A stretch of DNA of 64,000 bases from an uncultured Actinomycetes bacterium (GCA_963733905.1 CAVTEU010000013.1:157389-221388); one strand, 5' to 3'. Shown: positions 11,914 to 63,888, counted from the stretch's first letter. Notes: a model not told the origin generated them from the letters alone. Program-made: numbers and translations.

Positions 11914-12732
11914 TCATAAGACCGGAATCGCCGCCGAGATGATCTTCCTGAAGTCGTCGTGGGAGCGGCGGGTGGTCTCGAGGACGCGGTCGAGGGCGAT
12001 GGGGGCGGCGATCCCGGCAGACATGGTGGAGACGAAGGTGAAGGCGACGATCGCCATCCCGGCGTGATACCCAGCCATCACCTCGGGGAGGAAGCTGTTC
12101 GATGACACCGAGCAACCGGCGGACTGCGCCAGTCTGATCTCGGCAGGGGTCTCGAAGCTGGGTCCCATCCAGTAGCCGGCCACTCCGGTTCCCAGCGGGA
12201 CCCCGGCGTCGGTGGAGGCGGCACATACCGCGGCGGTGCGCTCGGCGTCGTACAACTCGGCCATCGAAAGGTAGGGCGTCGGCCACCCGCCACCCTCGCG
12301 CTCTGTCGACAATGGGTTGAACCCGGAGAAGTTGATGTGGTCGCTGAAGGCGAGGAACTCGCCGGGACCGAGGTCGCCCCGCATCGATCCCGAGTTCGCC
12401 GAGTAGAGAAGGGCCCGGCACCCGGTCCGGGCAAGGGTGCGGGCAGGGATCCCCGCCTGCTCCCAGGTTGCGCCGTCGCAAGGGAGGACCTTTGCCTTGA
12501 CCGCCGCCACCACCCGGTCACCAAGCCGGCCGACCTCGACTTCGTTGACGTGGCCCGGGATCGCGCTCGGTCGAAAACCGGGCAATTCCTCGAAGGGGAT
12601 GGTCACCCTGTCGGCAAGGACATCGGTGCACGGGGCGAACCCTGTGCCACAGATCAGCCCTACATCCGGCCGGAAGCCCGCTCGCTCCACGATGACCCGG
12701 GCGGCGCGCTCGGCCGTCTCCAGGGTGTCCAT
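11914..12732 (-). CDS. purine nucleoside / MTA phosphorylase family protein
   Basis: GLICGTGFAP...IPFEELPGFRPSAIPGHVNEVEVGRL...LLYSANSGSMR...FSDHINFSGFNPL follows the PunA/MtnP-type layout. ATG at 12732, with an alternative upstream ATG at 12786. Confidence 0.6.
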   Translation of the reverse strand: MDTLETAERAARVIVERAGFRPDVGLICGTGFAPCTDVLADRVTIPFEELPGFRPSAIPGHVNEVEVGRLGDRVVAAVKAKVLPCDGATWEQAGIPARTLARTGCRALLYSANSGSMRGDLGPGEFLAFSDHINFSGFNPLSTEREGGGWPTPYLSMAELYDAERTAAVCAASTDAGVPLGTGVAGYWMGPSFETPAEIRLAQSAGCSVSSNSFLPEVMAGYHAGMAIVAFTFVSTMSAGIAAPIALDRVLETTRRSHDDFRKIISAAIPVL

Positions 12733-51783: not shown

Positions 51784-53598
51784 TCAGAAAGCCGCTTCGT
51801 CGAGCACCATCAATGCACCGTCCTCGGCCTCGGCGTCGAGGCGACGGGCGGTGACTTGGGGTGCGCTGTGGCGGACGAACCACCTGGCTGCGGCGAGCTT
51901 GCCTTCGTAAAAGGGTCGCTCATCGGTGGTCGCCAGCGCGGCGATCGCCACTTCGGCGTGTCGGAGCAATTGCCAGGAGATCACCAATTCGGCAAGCGAG
52001 TCGAGCAACCCGTTGGTGTGCAGACCCACCGAGTAGATCCTCTCGGGATCGCCGCCCAGCGACGCCATGAGGTGGTCCACCATGGCACCGAGGTGCGCCT
52101 CGACGTCGTCGAGCATCCTCACCAGTCGGTCGCGATCCGCGGTCAAATCGTCGTCATGTCCACCCTTGCCGAACACCCTGATCTCGCCGAGCAGTTCCTG
52201 GATGGCGCGTCCCTGGTCGCGGGCGATCTTGCGGAAGAAGAGATCGAGAGCCTGGATCCCCGTGGTGCCCTCGTAGACCGTGTCGATCTTGGAGTCGCGA
52301 ATGTACTGCTCGAGCGGGTAGTCCTGGGTGTAGCCCGAGCCGCCAAGAACCTGGAGAGACTGGGACAAGACCTCATACGCCTTCTCGGAGGCGTACCCCT
52401 TCACCAGCGGAAGCATCAGGTCTCCACGCGCCGCCATCGCCAGGTCGTATGGCGCCGTTTCGGCGCACCCTTGCACAGTGGCGGCGTACAACACCAGGGC
52501 GCGCAGTCCTTCGGCTGTCGCCTTCTGCTCCATGAGCATGCGGCGCACGTCGGGGTGCCTGATGATGGGTACCCGCGGCGCCGACTTATCGCCGGCTTCG
52601 GCCAGGTCGGCGCCCTGGACCCGCTCGGTTGCATAGGCGAGGGCGTTGAGATACCCGGTGGAAATGGTGGCCGCCGACTTGGTCCCGATCGTCATCCGGG
52701 CGTGCTCGACCACACGGAACATCTGTCTGATCCCATCATGGACCCCGCCGACCAGGTAACCGACACAGGGAGCTCCGGCGCCGAGGGTGAGCTCACAGGT
52801 TGTCGACCCTTTGAGACCCATCTTGTGCTCGACCCGGGTAGCGAAGATCCCGTTGCGCTCCCCGAGCGAACCGTCCGGTTCGATGAGCCATTTGGGGACC
52901 ATGAAGAGCGACAGACCCTTGGTCCCGGGACCGGCCCCCACCGGGCGAGCGAGCACCAGGTGGACGATGTTCTCCGCCCCGTCGTGTTCGCCGCCGGTGA
53001 TGAATCGCTTCACCCCCTCCAGATGCCACATGTCGCCCCCGACGTGGGTGGCGCGTGTGGTCCCGGCACCGACGTCGGAGCCGGCATCGGGCTCGGTGAG
53101 GACCATGCTCCCCGCCCAGCCCCGCTCGATCATGAGCGCCGCGACCCGGCGCTGCTCGGGGGTGCCTTCGTCGTGGAGAAGCCGGGCGGACAGTGGTCCG
53201 GAGGAGTAGAAGACAGCCGTGGGATTGGCGCCGAGCAGGAGCTCCTGGGTCGCCCAGAAGACGGCACGCGGCACCCGGATTCCGCCGAGTTCCTCGGGGA
53301 GCCCGAAACGGTCCCAACCGCCATCGCGCAACGCCGCCAGGCTGCTCTTCATCTCGTCGGGAAGGACGACCTCCCCGCCATCCAGGACCAGATCGATGCG
53401 ATCGGCGACTTCGAAGCTGGCGGCCCACTCGTTCCGAGCCAGTCGCTCGATCTCGGCCAAGGCGGCACGCAAAGTGGCCTCGTCGAGATCGGTGAAGGGG
53501 GGCCGGTCAAGCTGATCTTGGATCCGGTGCACTTCAAAGAGGTTGAACTCGATGTCGCGAAGGTTCGACCGGTAGTGCCCCATCTGCTCCGTCTCCAT
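51784..53598 (-). CDS. large acyl-CoA dehydrogenase (FadE/extended C-terminal type)
   Basis: 604-aa intact ORF: ...GWAGSMVLTEPDAGSDVG...KRFITGGEHD...TIGTKSAATISTGY...QVLGGSGYTQDYPLEQYIRDSKIDTVYEGTTGIQ. Confidence 0.9.
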   Translation of the reverse strand: METEQMGHYRSNLRDIEFNLFEVHRIQDQLDRPPFTDLDEATLRAALAEIERLARNEWAASFEVADRIDLVLDGGEVVLPDEMKSSLAALRDGGWDRFGLPEELGGIRVPRAVFWATQELLLGANPTAVFYSSGPLSARLLHDEGTPEQRRVAALMIERGWAGSMVLTEPDAGSDVGAGTTRATHVGGDMWHLEGVKRFITGGEHDGAENIVHLVLARPVGAGPGTKGLSLFMVPKWLIEPDGSLGERNGIFATRVEHKMGLKGSTTCELTLGAGAPCVGYLVGGVHDGIRQMFRVVEHARMTIGTKSAATISTGYLNALAYATERVQGADLAEAGDKSAPRVPIIRHPDVRRMLMEQKATAEGLRALVLYAATVQGCAETAPYDLAMAARGDLMLPLVKGYASEKAYEVLSQSLQVLGGSGYTQDYPLEQYIRDSKIDTVYEGTTGIQALDLFFRKIARDQGRAIQELLGEIRVFGKGGHDDDLTADRDRLVRMLDDVEAHLGAMVDHLMASLGGDPERIYSVGLHTNGLLDSLAELVISWQLLRHAEVAIAALATTDERPFYEGKLAAARWFVRHSAPQVTARRLDAEAEDGALMVLDEAAF

Positions 53599-53610
53599 GA
53601 CCCTGGAAGC

Positions 53611-53645
53611 TTGAGTATAGCGTCAAAGTTTGAGCGTCCACTCAA
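53611..53645. promoter_or_regulatory. long imperfect palindrome upstream of the large ACAD gene (possible operator or 5'-UTR hairpin)
   Basis: TTGAGTATAGCGTCAAA-G-TTTGAGCGTCCACTCAA. The outer TTGAGT/ACTCAA arms are perfect. Begins 13 nt upstream of the start codon. Confidence 0.3.
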
Positions 53646-53663
53646 GGATGGGCGGTGGGAGCC

Positions 53664-53717
53664 GGAGCTGCCTCTTTCGCAACGAGGGGGTCACGGGTTC
53701 AAATCCCGTCAGCTCCA
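53664..53717 (+). ncRNA. 54-nt tRNA-like element lacking a D-arm (acceptor stem, anticodon-like arm, T-arm); possibly a deletion derivative of a tRNA or a tmRNA tRNA-like domain
   Basis: GGAGCTG|CCTCT|TTCGCAA|CGAGG|GGGTC|ACGGG|TTCAAAT|CCCGT|CAGCTCC|A. The acceptor stem is a perfect 7 bp and the T-arm a perfect 5 bp with a canonical TTCAAAT loop. The anticodon-like loop has CGC in the centre. No CCA is encoded. Confidence 0.45.
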
Positions 53718-54073
53718 CTGATGTCAGCCTGTACTAGTTGACAAATTGCTCGAGCCTGATTCAGGTCCGACGAGAGTTCTCAGTCATACGCGCCACACCG
53801 CCGCTCCACAGGCGTGCCACAGGATCGGGTCCGAAGCACCTCTCACCCAGCGAGGTGCTCACGGATCTGTCCCGCAATCCCATGATGTCAACGCTTCGCC
53901 AATCCGGTCGCTGTCTACGGAGGCGACCGGGAGGGTTCGGAAAGCTCGTAGGTCGATTCTCCTCGGCTGAGGCTCCAAATAGCGCGGCCGTAGCCTCTGG
54001 CTGGTCCCCTTCACCGGCTGGCTGTTTCCGTCGCTGCTGCTCCCCATCGGTCTTGGGGCTTTGATCCTCGGTT

Positions 54074-56442
54074 TCAGGGAAACGGAGTCACCTCCGTCGT
54101 CCCATCGAACCGCTTGACCACGGGGCCGCTCGGATCCGCCACCACGGTGATCGTGCCTGCGGTTGCGAGGTCGGTCGACGATGTCCCGATCAGCACCTCG
54201 ATCGATCCGGGCTCGACCACATATTCCAGGTCACGATCGTAGAACCCGAGCTGGCCGACCGGCACCTGGAAGTTCACACGGCACGACGCCCCGGCGGGCA
54301 GATGAACCCGGGCGAAGCTCTTCAGCTCCAGCACGGGACGGGTCAAGCTGGCCGACGGGTCTCTGACATATAGCTGGAGGACCTCGTCGCCTTCGCGCTT
54401 GCCTGTGTTGGCGATCGTCGACGCCGCGGTGATCACCCCATTCCACGAGACCTCGTCGGTGCTCAGCTCGAGGTCTGACACCTCGAACCTGGTGTAGCCA
54501 AGACCGTGCCCGAACGGGTAGAGCGGCGTGGCCTCGCCGTCGACATAGTCACCCTTCCAATGCGATCGTCCTCCGGAGATCTTGTGCCCGTAGTAGACGG
54601 GGATCTGCCCTGCCGACCGCGGATGCGAGATGGGCAGCTTCCCGCCTGGGCTCACCACTCCGCTGAGCACATCGGTGATGGCGTCGGCTCCCTCCTCGCC
54701 CGGTAGCCAGGCCTGGACGACCGCGGCGCTGTGCTCATGGGCCCATTGGCTCCCGCAGGGTCGGCCGGTCACCAGGACGAGCACGACCGGGGTCCCGGTG
54801 TCGATGACCGCCCGGACCAGATCTTCCTGGACGCCGGGAAGATCGAGCGAGAGACGGTCGCGGCCCTCGCCGGAGGTGCAGTCGCTGGTCAGGCCCGCCT
54901 TGTCTCCCATGACCATCACGGCCAGGGCTGCCTCTCGGGCCAGGGCGACCGCCTCCTCGAACCCGTCACGCGACTGACTGTCGACGTCACAGCCCCGGGC
55001 GTAGCCGACGCTGTCGCCCAGACGTTCGCGGAGGGCATCGAAGACGGTGCGTGCTTGTTTCATGGAGCCTTCGAGGCTCACCACGCCGGAGAACGGCACC
55101 CCGAATACGTTGTCGCCCGATTGCATGTCGACCAGTGCTTCGATGTGGGCCGGGTAGGTGTAGTCACCGAAGAGATTCCGAGCGTCGTGAGCGTTGGGCC
55201 CGATTACGGCGATCGAGCCGGCTCCAGGGGTAATGGGGAGTATGCCGTCGTTGGCCAGGAGAACCATGCTCTTCACGGCGATCCGCCGCGCCAGCTCGGC
55301 CTCTGACAATGCCTCGATCTCGGTCGAGACGGCGTCGGCATCTACGAAGGGCTTTTCGAAGAGGCCCAGTTCGAACTTCGACAGCAGAACTCTCCTCACC
55401 GCAGTATCGACGACACCGGGATCGATCGTCCCGGCCTTCACGCCTTCGATAAGTGGGGTCCCGTAGCAGTCGGTCCCGGGGAGCTCGACATCGATCCCGG
55501 CGGTGAGCGCGGTCCCCGCCGCGTCCGTGGCGTCTCGAGCCACGTGGTGATAGCTGGCCAGTTGCCTGACGGCGAAGTAGTCGGACACCACGGTGCCTTC
55601 GAATCCCCAATGCTCCCTGAGAAGCACTGTGAGCAGATCGCGGTCCGCGCCGCAAGGTATCCCGTCGAGCTCGTGATATGCGTTCATCACCGACCATGCC
55701 CCAGCGGCCACGACCGCTTCGAATGGATGGAGGTAGACCTCCCTCAGTTCCCGGGGGGGAGATGGGGAGGGGCCCAGTTCAATCCTCCCTCGGAGGCGCC
55801 ATACCCGACGAAGTGCTTGGCGGTCGCCACCACGCCCTCGGTAAGATCGGCCCCTGCAGCCCCTCGACAAAGGCGATTCCCATCCTGGCGACGAGGTAGG
55901 GATCCTCTCCGAAGGTCTCCTCGATCCGGCCCCAGCGCGGGTCTCTTGCGACGTCGAGGACCGGAGACAGCCCGTGGTGGGCGCCCATGGCGCGCATCTG
56001 CCGCCGAACCGCGGTCGGCCATCGCCCGGGCGAGATCCGGATCCCAGGTGGCGGCGACACCGATCGCCTGGGGGTAGACGACGGCGTGGCGCGACATCAG
56101 CCCCGAGCAGATCTCCTCGTGGACGATGGCCGGGATGCCGAGTCGGGTCTCATCGAGGAGGAAGCGCTGGATCTCGTTTGCAAGTCTGGCCGCATCCTCC
56201 GCACCGAGGTCGCTGGCCCCGGAGATCCTCGTCACGTGGCCGAGACCCTCACCGAGCAGGTCCCGCGCCTTGCCGTCAGAGAGCCGTCCATCCTCGGTCA
56301 GCTGGAAGACCCAGGCGCTCCCCAATTGTGCGACCTTCTCCTCGAGGGTCATCATCTCGAGCAGATCCTCGACCCGCTCGCCCACCAAGAGGCCGGGATC
56401 GCGGTAGGCCGGTTGCTGGCCGTCGACGGTGACCGCGGTCAT
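54074..56442 (-). CDS. glycoside hydrolase family 3 beta-glucosidase (BglX-like), at least 3 frame changes (~56020, ~55860, ~55770)
   Basis: LEEKVAQLGS..., RDPRWGRIEETFGEDPYL, KHFVGYGASEGG, GFEGTVVSDYFA, VMVMGDKAGLTSDCTSGEGRDR, FGHGLGYT. ATGA overlap with the upstream permease stop. Confidence 0.85.
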
Positions 56443-57299
56443 CCCTTCACTCCTCCTGCCGTGAGCCCACTCACGATCTGACGCTGGGCGATGAAGTAGA
56501 AGATCAAGGCCGGGATCATGGCCAGCGTTGTGTAGGCCAGGATCATCGCGGTGTCGGTCACGTACTGAGCCGAGATGTTGTTGATGCCGAGCGGCAGAGT
56601 CCATTGCTCGGGTTGTATCAACACCAGCAATGGGAGCAGGAAGGCGTTCCAGCTTCCCACCACGGTGAGCACCGCGATCGTGCTCAACACCGGGCGGGAC
56701 AAGGGGAGCATGACCGACCAGTAGAAGCGCAGCGGGCCACAGCCGTCGATGGCGGCCGCGTCTTCGAGGTCACGGGGGATGCTGCGGAAAAACGGGCGAA
56801 GGATCACGATCGAGAGCGGGAGCCCAAATGCCGCCTGGGGGAGGGCGATACCGAGAGGGCTGTTCAGCAGCCCTGTCTGTCGGAGAGTGATGAACAAGGG
56901 AAGGATGGCCACAGCTACGGGGAACAGCAGGCCCAGTGTGAACAGGGCGAAGAAGAATTCTCGGCCCCGGAAGCGGTATCGGGCGATCACGAATGCTGCC
57001 AGGGACGCAGCGGGGAGGACCAGGGCAGTGGTGATCAGAGCGATCAGAACACTGTTCTTCACCCACCCGTAGAAGCTGGGATCGGTCAGCGCCGTCTGGT
57101 AGTTGCTGAAGATCCAGGGGTCGGGGAGCCCGACCGGGTCGGCGGCGAGTTGGGCGTTGCTCCGAAATCCGCCGATGATCGAGAAGCTCAGCGGCACGAC
57201 GATCACCAGCAGGACGACGACTGCGATCACGATAGAGAAGCCCGCGGCCGAAGTCGAACTTTCGGAGCGGGTTGCTGGTGGGGCTGTGGTCGCAGTCAT
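56439..57299 (-). CDS. carbohydrate ABC transporter permease (MalG-like)
   Basis: 286-aa intact multi-TM ORF with an EAA-loop-like DLEDAAAIDGCGPLRFYWSVMLP. Confidence 0.85.
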   Translation of the reverse strand: MTATTAPPATRSESSTSAAGFSIVIAVVVLLVIVVPLSFSIIGGFRSNAQLAADPVGLPDPWIFSNYQTALTDPSFYGWVKNSVLIALITTALVLPAASLAAFVIARYRFRGREFFFALFTLGLLFPVAVAILPLFITLRQTGLLNSPLGIALPQAAFGLPLSIVILRPFFRSIPRDLEDAAAIDGCGPLRFYWSVMLPLSRPVLSTIAVLTVVGSWNAFLLPLLVLIQPEQWTLPLGINNISAQYVTDTAMILAYTTLAMIPALIFYFIAQRQIVSGLTAGGVKG

Positions 57300-58244
57300 G
57301 CGGTGAGGGCGCCCTCAAGGTCACGCCGGAGCACGAATCGTTGATAGAGGAGGGCCACGATCAGGGAGAGCCCGAAGACGATCACGGAAACGGCGCTGGC
57401 GTAGCCGAATTGGGCTCGTGCGGAAGCCCCAGTCGACGAGATAGGTGGCCATGGTGGCGGTGGCGTTGACCGGTCCACCTTTGGTGGTGACCCAGACCAG
57501 ATCGAATAGCTGCAGGGCGCCGATGATGGAGAGGAACATCGAGACCCGGATAGTGGGCCCGAGCAGCGGGAGGGTCACAAATCGGAAGCCTTTCCAGAAG
57601 GAGGCGCCGTCGATGGCTGCTGCCTCTTCGAGCTCGGTGGGGATGAGCTGGAGACCGGCGAGGATCAGCACCATGTGGAAGCCGAAGTACTTCCAGGAGA
57701 TGACGAAGAACAGGCTGTAGAGGGCGATATTGGGATCGGCCAGCCACTCCCTGGTCACGTCCGCCTGCACCGACTCGAGCCCAGGAGCTGGTCGAAGAGG
57801 CCATCGGGTCGATAGATCTGGCGCCAGACCACCCCGGTGACCACCTCGGAGAGGATGAACGGGGCGAAGTACATCGTCCGAAACACCCCGCGCCCCTTCA
57901 GATTGCGGCTGAGGAGGACGGCGAGGGCGACGGCGAAAGGGATCTGGAGAAGCAGAGAGAGCCCGATGATGATCCCGTTATGGGTGATCGCCTCAATGAA
58001 GAGTGGGTCGGCGAACGCGTCCCTGAAGTTCTGCAAGCCCACCCAATCGGTCAGCGGCTCCAGCCCATTCCAGTCGTACCCGCTGTAGCGGATGCTCTGG
58101 GTGATCGGGTAGAGCACGAAGAGCGTGTAGAGCGCCAGGGCAGGCAACAGGAACGCAAGGATCACCGGCCAGGGAGCGGTCCCTGGCGCGCGTCGACTCG
58201 TTCGGCTCGGCGCGCGTCACTCTGACTGGTGTCTCGCTGGTCAC
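57296..58244 (-). CDS. carbohydrate ABC transporter permease (MalF-like), about 3 frame changes (~58175, ~57775, ~57420)
   Basis: PWPVILAFLLPALALYTLFVLYPI..., ELEEAAAIDGASFWKGFRFVTLP..., FGYASAVSVIVFGLSLIVALLYQRF, spread over four track ORFs. Confidence 0.8.
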
Positions 58245-58316
58245 GATCGGCTTCGATGGGTGGAGGGCCGCCGGACCGGCGGCCCTCCACGACTTTGCTC
58301 ACGATACGACTGGTGG

Positions 58317-59683
58317 CTATCCGGCCGCGGCCGTTATGGCCTGAGTGACCTCCTCCGGTGTGGCCTCCCGGCGAACAGCGTCACGACCGCATCGTTGACT
58401 GCTGCGCCCAGCTCCGGGCTGAAGAACTGGTCCAGATAGAGCTGGACGAACCCAGCATGGCCCAGACCCTCCAGCACCTGCCAGCTGGAGCGGATCGGTG
58501 ACCGAGACCTCCGCGCCCTTGACCACCGGGAGGAAGAAGGCGGTCTCGCCGATCCGGATTGCCTGCTCGACCTCACTGATGTACTCCAGGAACTGGACCG
58601 CCTCAGGTGGGGCATCCTTGCCCACTGCGAAGCCGTCGCCACCGCCAAAACCGTCGGTCACGGCTCACCGGCGCCACCCTCTACGGCCGGGAAGGGGAAC
58701 CACCCGAATTCGGCTGGGAGACGCTCGGCGATGGGATCCTCGGGAGTCCCTATTCCTGACTGGTTGGCATAGCCACCCGGTCCCCACTGGCCCATCAGGC
58801 TGATCGCGGCCTGGCCGGTGCCGATAGTCCCGGACTCTCCGTCGGGAGCGTCCCATGGCGCGGCCAGGAAGCCAGGCTGGAAAGGCTCCATGTCGATCAG
58901 CCGCTGCAATTGATTGCCGGCCTCGACGAACTCGGGCTTGTTGAAGTCGAGATCGGTCGGTGACTTGCGTCCATGGCCGGCTCGCCACCCTCTCGGATCA
59001 TCAGATACGAGTAGTAGAAGTGGGCGGGCCACTTGTCTCCGGCGCCGACCGCGATCGGCGTGATCCCGGCGTCCTTCAGCGCCTGGACATCCTCCAGGAA
59101 CTCATCCCATGTCGCCGGTGGAGCATCGATTCCTGCCTGGGCGAACAGGTCTTTGTTGTACCAGAACCCGACCATTCCCAGGTTGAACGGAATGCCGTAC
59201 TGGACCCCATCCACCTGATACAGGCCGACCGCGCCCTCGTTGATGTTGCCGATGAATCCCGACGAAGCGTCGGTGATGTCCTGAAGCAGACCGGCTTCTA
59301 CCTGTTGCCTGAGGCCACCGCCACCCCAGGACTGGAACAGATCGGGCACGTCCCCGGCCTGGAGATTGGTCTGTAGCGCCGCCTTGAACGCCTCGTTCTC
59401 CATCACTGTGATGTTGATCTGACGTTGGGATTGGCCTCCATGAACTCATCGGCAATTCCTGCCAGAGCGACAACATCGGTTCGGTGTTCTGGATGTGCCA
59501 CCACTCGATGGTGACCTCCTCCGCCGGCGTCTCGGCTGCGGCGGTTGTCGTCGCTGCTTCGGCCGCCGTCGTCTCGGCCACCGCGCCGCCGGTAGTGGTG
59601 GACGCGTCTTCGGCGGTGCCGCCACCCCCGCAGGCGGCCAGGACCAGGGCCAGGATGGCCAGAATCGCCATGGGTCGTCTCAC
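58317..59683 (-). CDS. carbohydrate ABC transporter substrate-binding lipoprotein, about 5 frame changes
   Basis: MRRPMAILAILALVLAAC lipobox; EVTIEWWHIQNTEP; DLFQSWGGGGLRQQVEAGLL; YGIPFNLGMVGFWYNKDLF; GITPIAVGAGDKWPAHFYYSYL. C-terminal fragments lie in three further frames. Confidence 0.8.
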
Positions 59684-59719
59684 CGTTTCACGTGTTCCTC
59701 CTTCGGTCTGCCTCCGCGT

Positions 59720-59733
59720 TGAAAACGTTTTCA
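59720..59733. promoter_or_regulatory. LacI/GalR-type operator, perfect palindrome
   Basis: TGAAAACGTTTTCA matches the TGNAANCGNTTNCA consensus. It lies 37 nt upstream of the SBP start codon at 59683. Confidence 0.7.
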
Positions 59734-59772
59734 GTCAGGGTCTGGTCGTTTCTTCCTCCTCCTCGGATTAGT

Positions 59773-60784
59773 CTAGCGGACAGGGCCCGGCACGACTGCC
59801 GGACCACCAGCTCGGTGGGAAGTGTCAGATGGATCGGGTCCTGGTCGGGCTCGTCGATGAGCTCGAGAGAAGCTGCGTTGCCTCGTAGCCCATCTCCTGG
59901 ATGGATTGGTCGATGGTGGTCAGAGGGGGTCGAGCAGGGCCGACTCGGGGATGTTGTCGAATCCAATGACCGAAAGGTCCTCGGGCACTGAGAGCCCGAG
60001 TGATTGGGCTACCTCGATCGTGGCCAGCGCCGACACGTCGTTGGCGGCGAAGATCGCTGTCGGGGGATCGCTCATCTCGAGCAGCTCATGGGCCGGCCCC
60101 TCTGTGGCCTCCCGGGTGTACTCGCCGACCCGGACCAGGCCGGGCTCGTAGTGGATCCCCGCCCGCTCGAGAGCCTTGCTGATATCCCTGTTCCCGGAGC
60201 CGGGCCGACTCGAGATCGGGTCGGCCGGCGATGAACCCGATCCTGCGATGCCCGAGCCCGATCAGGTAATCGGTCGCCGTCATCGCCCCTTCGAGGTTCT
60301 GGGAGGCAACAGTCGGAAGGGGCGAAGCGCCGGCGTGCGGGTCGACGGCGACCACGGGCGCGGTGTGGGCCACGTCGACAACGGTGGGAGTGACCAGCAG
60401 CGTCCCGTCGGCGAGGGTGCCGTTGAGACGGGATAGATACCGGCGCTCCCAGCCCACCTGGGCGCCGACGTTGCCGTCCCCAGCGTACACGATCAACTCG
60501 TAACCGGTGGAGTGGATGGCACGGGCCGCTCCCTTGAGCAACTCGGCGCTGAACGGCTCGAGATCGGGAACGATGATCCCGACGACGTTGGTGCGATGAC
60601 TGCGCATGCTTCTCGCCACGAGACTCGACTCATAGCCCATGTCGTCGATCACAGCCTGGACCCGGGAGGAGGTGTCGCGGGCGACCCCGTATCGGCCATT
60701 GACCACTCGGGAGACCGTGGCGATCGACACCCCCGCCTCGGCGGCGACGTCACCGATAGTGACCCGGTCCTGCGCTTCTCTCAT
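59773..60784 (-). CDS. LacI family transcriptional regulator, about 3-4 frame changes
   Basis: HTH VTIGDVAAEAGVSIATVSRVVNG; GIIVPDLEPFSAELLKG; then ALERAGIHYEPGLV...AIFAANDVSALATIEVAQSLGLSVPEDLSVIGFDNIP and LPTELVVRQSC in other frames. 3' end uncertain. Confidence 0.8.
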
Positions 60785-60812
60785 GTTCTGGGATCGTTGT
60801 CGAGAACAATAT

Positions 60813-60826
60813 CGAAATCGTTTACA
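60813..60826. promoter_or_regulatory. second LacI-type operator-like site upstream of the lacI-family gene
   Basis: CGAAATCGTTTACA matches 13 of 14 consensus positions. Confidence 0.45.
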
Positions 60827-60908
60827 ACCTAAACACACGCCTGCGCTCCGTGCGTCGCACAACGGGGAGTTTCTTGCGGGGGGGGCTTCCGTCAGTTGAG
60901 AAAATATG

Positions 60909-60927
60909 CCGTACAATTGTCCGTACA
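60909..60927. promoter_or_regulatory. direct CCGTACA repeats / GTACAATTGT near-palindrome upstream of the antitoxin gene (possible autoregulatory operator)
   Basis: CCGTACAattgtCCGTACA lies 17 nt upstream of the ATG at 60944. The AGGAG RBS is at 60934-60938. Confidence 0.35.
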
Positions 60928-60943
60928 TCACCTAGGAGCGTTT

Positions 60944-61222
60944 ATGGCGGTGAAGACTGATCGTATGGAGGCTCGAGTGTCGCCTGAGGAGCGGCAGCGC
61001 ATCGAGCAGGCGGCCGCCGTTGCCGGTGTTTCTGTTTCGGCCTTCATTGTGAACGCAGCGGTGGATCGAGCCGAGGACGTCATATCTCAGGTGGCGATGA
61101 CAACGGTGCCGGCGGACTTCTTTGATGCTCTTTTGGCTGCGTTGGACGAGGCTGAGTCGGCTCCGCGGCTTACCCGCGCGGCCAAGGAAGCGTCTCGGAA
61201 CAGAAGAATCCGGGATAGGTGA
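60944..61222 (+). CDS. tacA: DUF1778-type ribbon-helix-helix antitoxin (TacA-like)
   Basis: MAVKTDRMEARVSPEERQRIEQAAAVAGVSVSAFIVNAAVDRAE...; overlaps the downstream GNAT gene (GTGA). Confidence 0.8.
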   Translation: MAVKTDRMEARVSPEERQRIEQAAAVAGVSVSAFIVNAAVDRAEDVISQVAMTTVPADFFDALLAALDEAESAPRLTRAAKEASRNRRIRDR

Positions 61223-61719
61223 CCTTTCGTGTCGAACCGATCGACGAAAACGATGTAGAAGGATTTCGTTGCGGCGTCGGTGAGCTCGATGAGTGGCTCA
61301 TCCAGCATGCAACCCATGCGACCGGGCAGGGCACGCGCACCTACGTTCTGGTTGAAGCCGATGAATCCGTTGTCGGCTACTTCGCCATCTCCCCGCATCT
61401 TTTGCGGCGGGAAGATGCCCCCTCGCGGATCGCCAGGGGTGCACCACGTGAGATACCCGCGATCCTCCTCGCCAAGCTGGCGCTGGATCGATCGCACCAT
61501 GGTTCCGGTCTGGGATCGGAGCTGCTCGTCTCAGCCATTGCGACCATCGTCGAAGCGGCCCGTCGTGCCGGAGGCCGGATGATCGTGGTGGACGCAATCA
61601 ACGACCAAGCAAGAAGCTTCTACCAGCACCACGACTTCAAGCCGTTGCCGGGGAACGCCCGGCGGCTAGTCATGAAGCTCAGCACGGCGGCGAAGGCCAT
61701 CGGAGTCGACTGGCCCTAG
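61219..61719 (+). CDS. tacT: GNAT-family acetyltransferase toxin (TacT-like)
   Basis: FRCGVGELDEWL...YVLVEADESVVGYFAIS...AILLAKLALDRSHHGSGLGSELL...FYQHHDFKPL. Intact and paired with the DUF1778 gene. Confidence 0.8.
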   Translation: MTFRVEPIDENDVEGFRCGVGELDEWLIQHATHATGQGTRTYVLVEADESVVGYFAISPHLLRREDAPSRIARGAPREIPAILLAKLALDRSHHGSGLGSELLVSAIATIVEAARRAGGRMIVVDAINDQARSFYQHHDFKPLPGNARRLVMKLSTAAKAIGVDWP

Positions 61720-61771
61720 GGCCAAGAGCCCGGCCGCCGTCACATCTCACACTGTCTCACGAGGCTCGTGT

Positions 61772-61849
61772 CACAGCCGCGCCACAAGACTCTGAAACGG
61801 GCCTAAAACCCCTGGTCGCAGCGTTTTGACCGCATCTTTCGCAACGAGG
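61772..61849. repeat. relic copy of the 3' end and downstream flank of a TetR-family gene
   Basis: Colinear with 63287-63364, 61 of 78 positions identical by my hand alignment. This includes the 19-mer CACAGCCGCGCCACAAGAC and GTTTTGACCGC.TCTTTCGCAAC. The minus strand reads ...LVAKDAVKTL, like the end of the TetR at 63331. Confidence 0.6.
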
Positions 61850-61882
61850 GGGCCACGGGTTCAAATCCTGTCAGCTCCACCA
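61835..61882 (+). other. tRNA/tmRNA 3'-half fragment with encoded CCA (att-like site)
   Basis: TCTTTCGCAACGAGGGGGCC|ACGGG|TTCAAAT|CCTGT|CAGCTCC|ACCA. 44 of 46 positions are identical to 53673-53718. CAGCTCCACCA is the 3' end typical of tmRNA, and tRNA-Ala ends similarly. Confidence 0.6.
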
Positions 61883-61900
61883 ACGCCCAAATCTGGGCGT
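61883..61900 (+). terminator. hairpin immediately after the CCA end
   Basis: ACGCCCA-aatc-TGGGCGT, a perfect 7-bp stem. Confidence 0.5.
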
Positions 61901-62428
61901 CCTCGTCTTCGATGAGGCGAATCAGTTGGGTTTGGTCGATGCCCTGCACTATTTCAGCTCACCATCGAGGTCGTGGCCGCTTCGGTGGTGGTATGGCAGT
62001 TCCGAGCCGAGCTTCGTGGCGGTGGGATGACGAGCGGTAGCGGCGAGCTCTGAAACTGATAGCAGTGACCTTTCTCGTGTTGGCCGCTTATGTAACGGTC
62101 GAGGCGATCCGAGATCTTCTGACGGGCGAGCAGGCTGCCACTTCGACGGTGGGGATCGTGCTGGCGGCGGTCTCCCTAGCGGTGATGCCCACCCCTCGCC
62201 TGGCTGAAGCGACAGACAGGGATCCGACTCGACCGCAGGACCCTGGTCGCCGACTCGGCCGAGTCGTTCCTCTGCGCCTGGCTGTCCGCCATCCCGCTTG
62301 CCGGATTGGTGATCAACGCCACGGGCGGCTGGTGGTGGGCCGACCCGTTGGCAGGACTAGGGGTCGCCTGGCTTGCACTGCGCGAAGGCGCCGAAGCCTG
62401 GCGTGGCGAGATCCTCGATGAGGATTGA
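61900..62428 (+). pseudogene. cation-efflux (CDF-like) membrane protein remnant, 5'-truncated and frameshifted
   Basis: LTIEVVAASVVVWQFRAEL, IAVTFLVLAAYVTVEAIRDLL.G, VGIVLAAVSLAVMP, LVADSAESFLCAWLSAIPLAGLVINATGGWWWADPLAGLGVAWLALREGAEAWRGE are spread over at least 3 frames. Stop at 62426-62428. Confidence 0.45.
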
Positions 62429-62470
62429 CCGCCCGTCTCGGCTGGACCACGATGCTCGAACATATCTGAG

Positions 62471-62572
62471 TTCCATCCGCAGCTATTGAACAGCGACATG
62501 GAGGCAGTCGACGGCACACCCGTCGTCGACCTCAAACCAGAGATCGCCCTGATGGCAAAGGCTGACAAATAG
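62471..62572 (+). pseudogene. short remnant resembling the DGTPxxDxKP region of TrmO/TsaA-like methyltransferases
   Basis: FHPQLLNSDMEAVDGTPVVDLKPEIALMAKADK then stop. Only ~33 codons, with an in-frame stop just upstream. Confidence 0.3.
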
Positions 62573-62587
62573 AAAGGAGAACACGCG

Positions 62588-62989
62588 ATGGCGAAAACGC
62601 GCAAGCCAAATACGACCCGAAAGCCGCCTGTGCCATCGGAGAGTCACTCCGAGATCGAGGATTGGATCCGGAGCCAGATGCCGGATCTGCAGCCCATCGT
62701 CAAAGGGGTCGACGAATTGATCCGCGAGATGATCTCCGGGCTTCAGTACGCCATCAAGTGGAAGCAGGCTTACTACGGGTTACCAGACCTCGGGTGGATC
62801 GTCGAGATGGTCGCCTACGACGTCTCGGTGAATGTCGTCTTCTTCGGCGGCGCGGATTTCGACCCTCAGCCGCCACTAGGAGACACCGACCGGAGTCGCT
62901 ACGTCAAGTTGGCGACCCTGGAGGAGGCGCAGGAACCGGAGATGCACAAGTGGATCGAGCAAGCGGGGCGTGTCCCGGGTTGGAAATGA
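62588..62989 (+). CDS. DUF1801 (YdhG-like) domain protein
   Basis: ...LQYAIKWKQAYYGLPDLGWIVEMVAYDVSVNVVFFGGADFDP...; AAAGGAGA RBS; intact. Confidence 0.7.
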   Translation: MAKTRKPNTTRKPPVPSESHSEIEDWIRSQMPDLQPIVKGVDELIREMISGLQYAIKWKQAYYGLPDLGWIVEMVAYDVSVNVVFFGGADFDPQPPLGDTDRSRYVKLATLEEAQEPEMHKWIEQAGRVPGWK

Positions 62990-63330
62990 GCGTCTATGCA
63001 CCGGACGCTCCTGAAGACGATTGAGGACGAGGAGGAATGATATGTGAGCTTGACCCGTGTGTGGTGGACACTCGATTCTGGTGTTATCCAGAGAGGGGGT
63101 CCCGGATGGGCCGTCCTAGGCGATCAGTCCGAGAATGGAGGGCGATGCGGCCAGGACAACCGCGAGATCGGGCAGTAAGCGCTCGCGCAGAAAACGCAAC
63201 GGCGTACTTCCTATCAGGGGTCGACGCCTTGCCAGAAGTGATGGAGGAGGCGGCGGTCATTCTGCCAGAGCTCACTCCGCCTGTGCCACAGCCGCGCCAC
63301 AAGACCATGAATGAGAACCGCATCCTCTGG

Positions 63331-63888
63331 TCAGAGGGTTTTGACCGCGTCTTTCGCAACAAGGCGCTCGGCGTGCATCGCAAAGTCGAAACCCGGGTCG
63401 AGCAGCGATTGAAGTGCATACCCATTTAGCGCCGCCACCAATGCCTCCGCCCGCAGCGGATTCCCGGCGCCGGGTGAGGCGCGGTCCATCGCCTCGGCGA
63501 AGCGGGTCACCCTGGCTTGGTGATGACGGAGGACTCGACCCGCCATCGCCTGGTCGGTGAGCGCGCCGCCGACCGCCATCCTGAGGTAGACGCGGGCGAG
63601 CGGCTCCTCCTCGGTGATGAACCGGACATAGGCGGAGACCAGGTCGGACACTGTGTCTGACCCGGTGCCGCTTGGATCGGGGTCGACCGCCGTTATTGCC
63701 TGACGGACCACCGTGAGGACCACCTCTTCCTTCGACCCGAAAAGGTTGTAGAAGCTTCCCGGCTGGATCCCCGCCATCTCGCAGATCGCCTTGAGAGTTG
63801 CTGCCTCGAGCCCGCCCTGGGCGAGGAGGTCGCGGGTGGCGGCGAGTATTCGGTCACGGGTTTCGAGACCGACGCGGTACCTGGCCAT
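63331..63888 (-). CDS. TetR/AcrR family transcriptional regulator
   Basis: RDRILAATRDLLAQGGLEAATLKAICEMAGIQPGSFYNLFGSKEEVV (HTH). Intact. Confidence 0.85.
   Translation of the reverse strand: MARYRVGLETRDRILAATRDLLAQGGLEAATLKAICEMAGIQPGSFYNLFGSKEEVVLTVVRQAITAVDPDPSGTGSDTVSDLVSAYVRFITEEEPLARVYLRMAVGGALTDQAMAGRVLRHHQARVTRFAEAMDRASPGAGNPLRAEALVAALNGYALQSLLDPGFDFAMHAERLVAKDAVKTL

Follow-up and report, generated by a model that had tools for sequence, protein, structure and literature searches.

The TetR-ACAD locus

The 64,000-nt stretch of an uncultured Actinomycetes bacterium analysed here (GCA_963733905.1, CAVTEU010000013.1:157389-221388; referred to as the window) carries a gene for an acyl-CoA dehydrogenase (ACAD) and, about 9.7 kb away from it, a gene for a TetR-family regulator (63331-63888). 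A short sequence at the ACAD end of the intervening DNA folds like a tRNA without a D-arm. This structure is very probably the junction scar of a cassette, which inserted into a look-alike site at the end of the TetR gene.

The tRNA-like sequence is part of a direct repeat. Positions 53670-53718 and 61832-61880 are identical in 46 of 49 positions (94%) and are spaced by 8162 bp. A 43-mer of the repeat block has two occurrences in the window, both of which are these repeats; the number expected by chance is 0. This pair had already been recognized in a first-pass annotation of the DNA. What it overlooked is a third, partial copy at 63271-63364, which is 76% identical to 61756-61849 over 94 nt and ends 15 nt into the tRNA-like block. 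The GC and skew profile across the window has no sharp boundary of an island.

The left copy is immediately preceded by GGAGCTG (53664-53670), which abuts an anticodon-stem-like CCTCT and offers a 7-bp acceptor pairing. The structure predicted for the 54-mer at 53664-53717 (-25.1 kcal/mol, z = -3.6) comprises an acceptor stem, an anticodon-like arm and a T-arm. Both the pairing and the fold without a D-arm were reproduced as first described. ARAGORN reports a 70-nt tRNA-Ala(cgc) at 53649-53718, in whose model the D-stem does not pair. The Rfam tRNA model (RF00005) scores 33.9 bits with a gathering score of 29; its alignment needs 13 D-arm positions deleted. In the left copy, the anticodon stem is interrupted by a T-C mismatch at 31-39. 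The right copy has no tRNA 5' half upstream according to ARAGORN, and it runs, as annotated, into CCA (61880-61882) and the hairpin ACGCCCA-AATC-TGGGCGT (61883-61900). The T-arm had been called perfect in each copy; this does not apply to the right copy, where the T-stem ACGGG/CCTGT contains a G-T pair.

Empty sites in relatives

We found the same locus in relatives through ACAD homologs. In four of them (L121, L122, L123 and L124; 84-89% identity), ACAD is directly preceded by a TetR gene (184-190 aa), and a tRNA half is absent. An empty site in related genomes, which the first-pass annotation had proposed to look for, is hence present. The fact that TetR is next to ACAD in all four relatives indicates that there was never a tRNA gene at this locus.

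We joined the left flank of the window through TCTTTCGCAAC (53673-53683) to the part of the right flank that follows TCTTTCGCAAC (63350-63360); the product is colinear with the four uninterrupted junctions. The rejoined flanks restore a TetR protein of 189 aa, which ends in ..HAERLVAKEAAPAPTAHP (displaced tail ..LVAKEAAPAPTAHP) before the stop codon; the native tails of the orthologs read ..LVAEGTMPADWGSHP and ..LVADAAPAG. It follows from this restoration that the 24 nt from 53651 to the core of the repeat are the old TetR tail. Synteny with a further relative, L119, stops at 53651, which is the host boundary. GGAGCTG is the reverse complement of the Ala-Ala-Pro codons in the TetR tail, and the uninterrupted L123 has GGGGCTG at the homologous place, a match of 6/7.

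Identity of the repeats

Species-representative genomes were scanned with a 42-nt core of the repeat. The search resulted in at least 118 stretches (L001-L118), all of them from metagenome-assembled genomes of Acidimicrobiia, some of which are mislabelled as Acidobacteriota. Several genomes contain multiple core matches, many of them at contig ends. The 124 listed copies fall into three groups according to their 5' flank. At least 53 copies are complete tRNA-Ala(CGC) genes, in which the canonical 5' half GGGGCTGTAGCTCAGCCTGGCAGAGCACCTCG precedes the core and in which the 3' half is identical to the core of the left copy in the window. About 60 of the listed copies have instead a conserved right arm, with the order ..GCGCCACAAGAC.., CCCCTGGTCAGAGGGTTTTGACCGC, ATCT and core; the right copy and the third copy of the window belong here. 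The last group is a handful of odd copies and includes the left copy of the window, the 5' flank of which is shared by none of the 124 other listed copies. Its junction was seen only in this strain and in L120, a near-identical contig. Judged by sequence, the repeats are the 3' half of an Acidimicrobiia tRNA-Ala(CGC) gene from the anticodon loop to the discriminator.

The first-pass annotation had read the end of the repeat as that of a transfer-messenger RNA (tmRNA), and this can be dismissed. ARAGORN finds no tmRNA, and the Rfam tmRNA model (RF00023) stays at 19.4 bits, below its gathering score of 47, with an alignment of the right copy that covers only the T-arm, the acceptor strand and CCA. 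The left copy also lacks a complete cloverleaf with a D-arm and the conserved G18 G19. The alanine identity of a tRNA requires a G3-U70 pair. Pairing through GGAGCTG gives the left copy A3-U70, while G3 is present in all canonical copies (at least 53); its flank carries T31 and A3 where the canonical genes have G31 and G3. No promoter-like or terminator-like site was found for a 54-nt element at 53664-53717. The canonical tRNA-Ala(CGC) gene has a TACAAT promoter and resides in a context other than the window locus, namely in a conserved housekeeping neighbourhood (at least 38 loci).

A family of tRNA-Ala(CGC) cassettes

The core is followed on its 3' side by a conserved left arm (about 150 nt) or else by unrelated host DNA. 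Three types of this arm can be told apart by their variable first 30 nt: a hairpin-type "trailer", type II (TTCGCCTTGTACTAGTTGA) and type III (CCTGGTTATACTGTCAGAAAGT). Tandem CACA motifs and then a hairpin (GAAGCACCTC..GAGGTGCTT) follow the variable part. All four combinations of flanks occur, that is tRNA with unrelated host flank, tRNA with left arm, right arm with half tRNA and left arm, and right arm with half tRNA and other sequence. The presence of all four is the signature of site-specific integration with a crossover in the anticodon loop. Since position 31 is G in the canonical copies and T in the arm copies, the identity starts at the loop. These flanks and arms agree with the first-pass annotation, which had proposed that the repeats form the identity segment for an integrase of this type. 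The attP of each element comprises about 290 bp: right arm, 46-nt tRNA 3' half and left arm, in this order. The elements make up an integrative family of Acidimicrobiia with tRNA-Ala(CGC) as its normal target. A limited literature search found no published description of such a family.

The ~290-bp module recurs at least 60 times in L001-L118, often with several copies per genome and with copies at contig ends. The small cassettes that it delimits differ widely in cargo and are mostly without an integrase.

Behind type III left arms an open reading frame (ORF) starts right after the CACA motifs (MGHIERTDRPKPWRARYRAPDGR...; L083, L084, L085, L094 and L100). The ORF fragments match Phage_int_M/SAM and Phage_integrase (PF00589, E = 5e-11; HDLRD...Y). 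A different PF00589 integrase lies beside the tRNA in L060. Complete cassettes without an integrase are present in L042 (2.8 kb), L056 (5 kb) and L079 (4.8 kb) with hydrolase, TetR, cupin, HSP20 and TPR genes as cargo. Taken together, the family contains a few autonomous members and many that lack an integrase. Other searches had less success. Clustering of ORFs beside the arms for an integrase returned variable cargo only. A search with the motif H.LRH[TS] had no match; it missed the family integrase because the latter reads HDLRD. The 42-mer core had 0 matches in viral contigs, and when proteins were sought that end in the "trailer" sequence just 3' of the half-tRNA copies, only short ORFs came up.

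Because all arms read LVAKDAVKTL and a stop codon on the minus strand, an origin of the arms from the TetR tail was considered. It was rejected: ordinary arm copies hit a stop inside the T-loop, and the TetR tails of insertion-free loci differ.

Another odd copy is located on the minus strand of L056 (6343-6414). It consists of the tRNA 3' half and about 10 nt that resemble a D-stem/anticodon-stem junction, and it follows directly after the stop of a 372-aa gene (..REAELVVSGG). ARAGORN calls a 72-nt tRNA-Ala here. This copy may be a second false tRNA, which came from a rearrangement or from secondary-site integration. Both it and the left copy in the window have GGGCGG and GGAGCTG; orthology of the two was discarded, as these bases in L056 are the end of the unrelated 372-aa gene.

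Structure of the insertion

The coordinates of all features are listed in Table 1. The inserted DNA extends over about 9.7 kb, from 53684 to ~63349, between the last TetR codons and ACAD. The 8.1-kb segment that the first-pass annotation had bracketed is therefore inserted DNA but only a part of it, as the insertion reaches ~63350. It can be divided into two units, E_A (53719-61834; 8.1 kb) and E_B (61881-63349; 1.5 kb).

Table 1. Features of the TetR-ACAD locus and of the inserted cassettes (positions in the window).
Feature	Position	Strand	Evidence
ACAD, host left flank	51784-53598	-	Pfam Acyl-CoA_dh_M/_1/_C; orthologs 84-99% identical
Host intergenic DNA upstream of ACAD	53599-53641	.	Conserved in L119, L121-L124
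Displaced original TetR 3' end (V-A-K-E-A-A-P-A-P-T-A-H-P-stop), reconstructed	53642-53683	-	Reconstruction; colinear with four uninterrupted junctions
Putative attL core, tRNA-Ala(CGC) 3' half (left copy)	53673-53718	+	Identical to 3' half of at least 53 canonical genes; identical in L120
Left arm (P'-type) of E_A: TTGACA-containing type II, CACA repeats 53790-53825, hairpin GCACCTC..GAGGTGC 53836-53858	53719-53868	+	
E_A cargo	53869-61739	.	Pfam matches, ORFs
Right arm (P-type) of E_A: CACA pair 61768/61779, then CCCCTGGTCGCAGCGTTTTGACCGC, ATCT	61740-61834	+	Homologous to at least 30 loci
Internal junction core: second tRNA 3' half, CCA, 7-bp hairpin (right copy)	61835-61900	+	
E_B cargo: DUF1801 protein (62588-62989, +), hypothetical ORFs	61901-63270	.	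Pfam, L120 gene calls
Right arm of E_B: CACA pair 63283/63294, then CCTCTGGTCAGAGGGTTTTGACCGCG	63271-63349	+	76% identical to 61756-61849
True attR core remnant TCTTTCGCAACAAGG	63350-63364	+	Host TetR sequence resumes past crossover
TetR-family regulator, intact, tail from element-derived codons	63331-63888	-	Pfam TetR_N; orthologs; reconstruction

The ends of the inserted cassettes match a family with over 100 loci in Acidimicrobiia metagenome-assembled genomes. E_A has both arms. Over 127 nt, its left arm shares 92% identity with L075; this arm also matches L008, L058, L092, L093, L032 and others and contains the motif pair 53803/53814. The minus-strand cargo encodes a GH3 beta-glucosidase, two ABC permeases, a sugar-binding protein (SBP) and LacI, and the plus strand a TacA-like antitoxin (60896-61222) and a GNAT toxin (61219-61719), together a TacAT addiction module. 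This gene content, including the lack of an integrase, is as it was first annotated. The motif GYKYCACARS occurs six times in the window; these are three pairs with a spacing of 11 nt, one for each arm. The minus strand of the right arm of E_B encodes the last codons of the present TetR (..DAVKTL) and its stop. No left arm is recognizable in E_B, and its cargo is without nucleotide homologs in the other loci.

Direct repeats of a tRNA 3' part are hence combined in the window with conserved att arms that are shared with other members of the family. E_A has the layout of a cis-mobilizable element (CIME): both arms are present, and it contains no recombinase and no integration or transfer genes. 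An integrase next to the att site is found in the members with type III arms; none is encoded in the window, in E_A or in E_B. The first-pass annotation had regarded the enclosed DNA as an integrated islet that lacks an integrase; this view is supported by the family-type arms and by the empty sites in the relatives. The integration target was the TetR 3' end and not a tRNA gene itself.

The near-identical contig L120

L120 shares 99% ACAD protein identity and 97.6% nucleotide identity over 21.9 kb with the window. This independent contig has the same insertion with the same three junctions, which are base-for-base identical. Its genes for LacI (337 aa), SBP (453 aa), the permeases (288 and 286 aa) and GH3 (789 aa) are intact. 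The ACAD of the window probably starts at 53583, giving 599 aa as in L120.

Between 41734 and 63592 there are 49 indels relative to L120, none of them a multiple of three. Their density is 1.7/kb in the left flank, 3.1/kb in E_A and 5/kb in E_B, an about two-fold excess in the island, where all indels are 1-2 nt; ACAD and the junctions have none. The substitutions are also uneven: the att junctions have 0, ACAD has 4/kb and the other parts have 20-23/kb. The pattern of substitutions and indels suggests strain divergence mixed with long-read consensus error. The genes in sister contigs of these long-read assemblies are similarly fragmented. With intact genes in L120 and fragmented genes in the sister contigs, consensus error is at least as likely as true decay. 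The high frameshift density noted before in the enclosed operon thus holds in that the island is denser by about two-fold, but frameshifts also occur in the left flank and are absent from L120.

Proposed mechanism

The insertion point in the TetR gene, CCTCTTTCGCAACAAGG, reads CCTCT-TTCGCAA-CAAGG and matches the anticodon stem-loop of the tRNA, CCTCG-TTCGCAA-CGAGG, in 15 of 17 positions. This match argues for a secondary attachment site. If the loop must be exact and at least 8 of the 10 stem bases must match, about 0.3 such sites are expected per 4-Mb genome, which makes a chance look-alike plausible.

In the scenario that we propose, a tyrosine integrase of the family, supplied in trans, would have recombined attP with the look-alike in TetR, presumably with a crossover in the 7-nt loop TTCGCAA (53676-53682). 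The empty TetR allele before integration can be reconstructed as GGAGCTGCCTCTTTCGCAACAAGGCGCTCGG. The attL product (53642-53868) would then consist of the remnant of the TetR tail, the tRNA 3' half brought by the element and the left arm, and would be the left copy. The reciprocal attR product (63271-63364) would join the right arm through TCTTTCGCAAC to the body of TetR; this would be the third copy, in which TetR acquired the new tail DAVKTL. The insertion would comprise two cassettes in tandem without an integrase, E_A and E_B, with the right copy as the junction between them. The tandem could have originated by integration of E_A into the attL of a resident E_B (accretion) or by integration of an E_A-E_B composite as one unit. 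The 54-nt cloverleaf without a D-arm would be a coincidence of the half tRNA carried by the element with the displaced codons of the TetR tail. As the alignment with the empty sites accounts for the 5' flank, earlier ideas of a degenerate tRNA 5' half or a degenerate right arm became unnecessary. The mechanism is an ordinary one; the element family is undescribed.

The 20-mer GGAGCTGCCTCTTTCGCAAC occurs in an unrelated GC-rich gene on two soil metagenome contigs (L125, 1427-1446; L126, 972-991). Look-alikes of the anticodon loop thus do arise by chance.

Several observations weigh against the proposed scenario. A pre-integration allele with the exact sequence GCCTCTTTCGCAACAAGG was not found, and the metagenome scan with the attL/empty-allele 20-mer gave only the two unrelated chance matches in L125 and L126. 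What the crossover region contained before the insertion is therefore an inference. Motif and Pfam searches detected no integrase in the window; its action in trans is an assumption. E_B is without a recognizable left arm, so that its status as a cassette depends on the right arm. L119 combines the same arm and TetR tail with other cargo and no attL, which calls for an extra step of deletion or replacement. Finally, that GGAGCTG is complementary in exactly 7/7 positions is a real coincidence, with a prior probability of about 1e-4 at this place; post-hoc selection and the 6/7 version in L123 make it less striking, but only soften the point.

Alternative explanations

The calls of ARAGORN and Rfam and the perfect tRNA-Ala 3' half would also be expected if a genuine tRNA-Ala(CGC) gene had served as attB and had later lost positions 8-26 with the D-arm, which was one of the two readings in the first-pass annotation. 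In the four relatives, TetR is followed by ACAD with no tRNA in between, and the 24 nt of the 5' flank are in frame as the TetR tail. The canonical gene has its own conserved context and promoter, and it carries G31 and G3 in place of T31 and A3. A lost D-arm is therefore very unlikely. The other earlier reading, a functional minimal tRNA-like RNA without a D-arm that is transcribed from 53664-53717, could draw on the stable fold, the Rfam score above the gathering threshold and the exact 7-bp acceptor stem. The 5' strand of this stem is, however, inherited coding sequence (Ala-Ala-Pro codons) with a counterpart in the empty site. Promoter and terminator are lacking in the search described above, A3-U70 replaces G3-U70, the T-C mismatch at 31-39 disturbs the anticodon stem, and both the flank and the junction were seen only in this strain and in L120. 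We consider such an RNA hardly credible.

The long-read metagenome assembly could have collapsed a multi-copy repeat and so produced a chimera, since the 46-mer is multi-copy and often at contig ends and the assembly contains many 1-nt indels. Yet attL, internal junction and attR are identical in the independent L120, which differs by about 2% substitutions elsewhere; attL and attR are the reciprocal products of one event, and L119 has independently the same proximal arm fused to TetR. An assembly artefact is thus extremely improbable. The remaining alternative deserves somewhat more attention and is still improbable: a pre-formed block could have arrived by homologous or illegitimate recombination without an integrase, in which case the likeness to the stem-loop would be a result of the junction and not its cause. 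The sequence of the crossover region could belong to host or element alike, and its counterparts in the relatives, TCTGCCACCAG or TCCTCCGTAACCAG, resemble the tRNA stem-loop less closely. Against this stand the positions of both junctions exactly at the family core, the complete arms that face inward at both ends, and the host bases outside of the loop (CCTCT and CAAGG), which also match the anticodon stem. The pair of products is moreover that expected from a tyrosine-integrase reaction.

Comparison with known systems

The sites at which elements integrate into tRNA genes were reportedly classified by Williams in 2002, with an anticodon-loop class among them. This class and actinomycete integrative elements such as pSAM2 and SLP1 are close to the present family; there as here, the element restores the 3' half of the tRNA and the enzyme is a tyrosine integrase with arm-type sites. 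The present family differs from them in its Acidimicrobiia host, its target tRNA-Ala(CGC) and the fact that most copies are without int, rep and tra genes.

Secondary-site integration by a tRNA-targeting element has been tested experimentally with ICEBs1 of Bacillus subtilis, in which deletion of attB forced integration at secondary sites (Menard and Grossman 2013, PMC3715440). As in that system, the chromosomal site resembles attB (here in 15/17 positions) and lies in or beside an ordinary gene. In contrast, the event described here is deduced from comparative genomics of an uncultured actinobacterium, the units lack an integrase, and the attL folds like a tRNA.

CIMEs are decayed integrative and conjugative elements or integrative and mobilizable elements of Firmicutes, and their mobilization was shown by experiment (Pavlovic 2004, Bellanger 2011, reviewed in PMC5704250). 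The cassettes resemble them in that they are flanked by att sites, have no integration or transfer genes and stand in tandem with one shared att core, a pattern expected of accretion or of co-integration as a composite. Our comparison is based on att layout and gene content, and a difference is seen in the short conserved arm modules around very diverse small cargo. The tandem islands at ssrA of Dehalococcoides depend on the serine recombinase DsiB, with repeats of 20 bp and a crossover in the T-loop of the tmRNA (McMurdie 2011, PMC3146451). They resemble the lineage-wide pattern described here in that direct repeats from the 3' end of such a tRNA-like gene enclose many strain-specific islands of uncultured or fastidious bacteria, and some islands without an integration module were proposed to be cis-mobilizable. 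The Acidimicrobiia family differs by its tyrosine integrase, its 46-bp repeat and the anticodon-loop crossover in tRNA-Ala(CGC).

Implications

The attL at the secondary site passes both ARAGORN and the Rfam gathering threshold for tRNA, so that annotation pipelines would report a tRNA-Ala. Such a false tRNA can be recognized from the empty site in relatives and then from reading the 5' flank on the other strand. The locus would further be an example of natural secondary-site integration that is explained by a 15/17 mimic of the anticodon stem-loop, and of a regulator whose C-terminus was rewritten by the arm of an element. The family itself is abundant in soil Acidimicrobiia and previously undescribed; it targets tRNA-Ala(CGC) and carries cargo for sugar use, regulation, stress, toxin-antitoxin and defence. 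None of this overturns known mechanisms.

A wider reading is conceivable, and we regard it as rather doubtful. The window could be one instance of a lineage-wide gene capture in Acidimicrobiia, in which small cassettes (1.5-10 kb), for the most part lacking an integrase and each enclosed by the ~290-bp module, accumulate in arrays; a few members with an integrase would shuffle them in trans, and new arrays could start at look-alikes such as this TetR gene. If true, this would be a gene-capture system akin to an integron with a half tRNA as recombination site. Among the housekeeping genes upstream of the canonical tRNA-Ala(CGC) in the 38 listed loci there is no recombinase, and hence no integron-like platform.

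Further observations at the TetR-ACAD site

Upstream of ACAD a 7-bp inverted repeat, CTTGAGT (53610-53616) ..N23.. ACTCAAG (53640-53646), is kept in all relatives. This palindrome is probably the operator of the adjacent TetR. TetR is now 9.7 kb away from the putative operator and has a C-terminal tail altered by the insertion.

The ACAD of L119 has 87% identity to that of the window. L119 shares the proximal 35 nt of the right arm of E_B, and its TetR also ends in DAVKTL; the cargo is different and there is no attL. Either the same ancestral event was followed by a replacement, or a second event occurred at the same site. The TetR-ACAD site of L119 (reverse complement, ~12030-12300) is occupied by a different insert of 5.6 kb, the first ORF of which contains a DUF262-like motif (..FFVAAYQRGYRWG..). 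The motif suggests that this ORF may be a defence gene. The TetR-ACAD site seems to act as a small variable hotspot.

At some distance from this site, the window contains an insertion of 47 nt relative to L120 (42351-42397), the ends of which are a 10-bp inverted repeat (TTGGCGTCAC..GTGACGCCAA). Either a small hairpin element or an indel specific to the strain may account for it.

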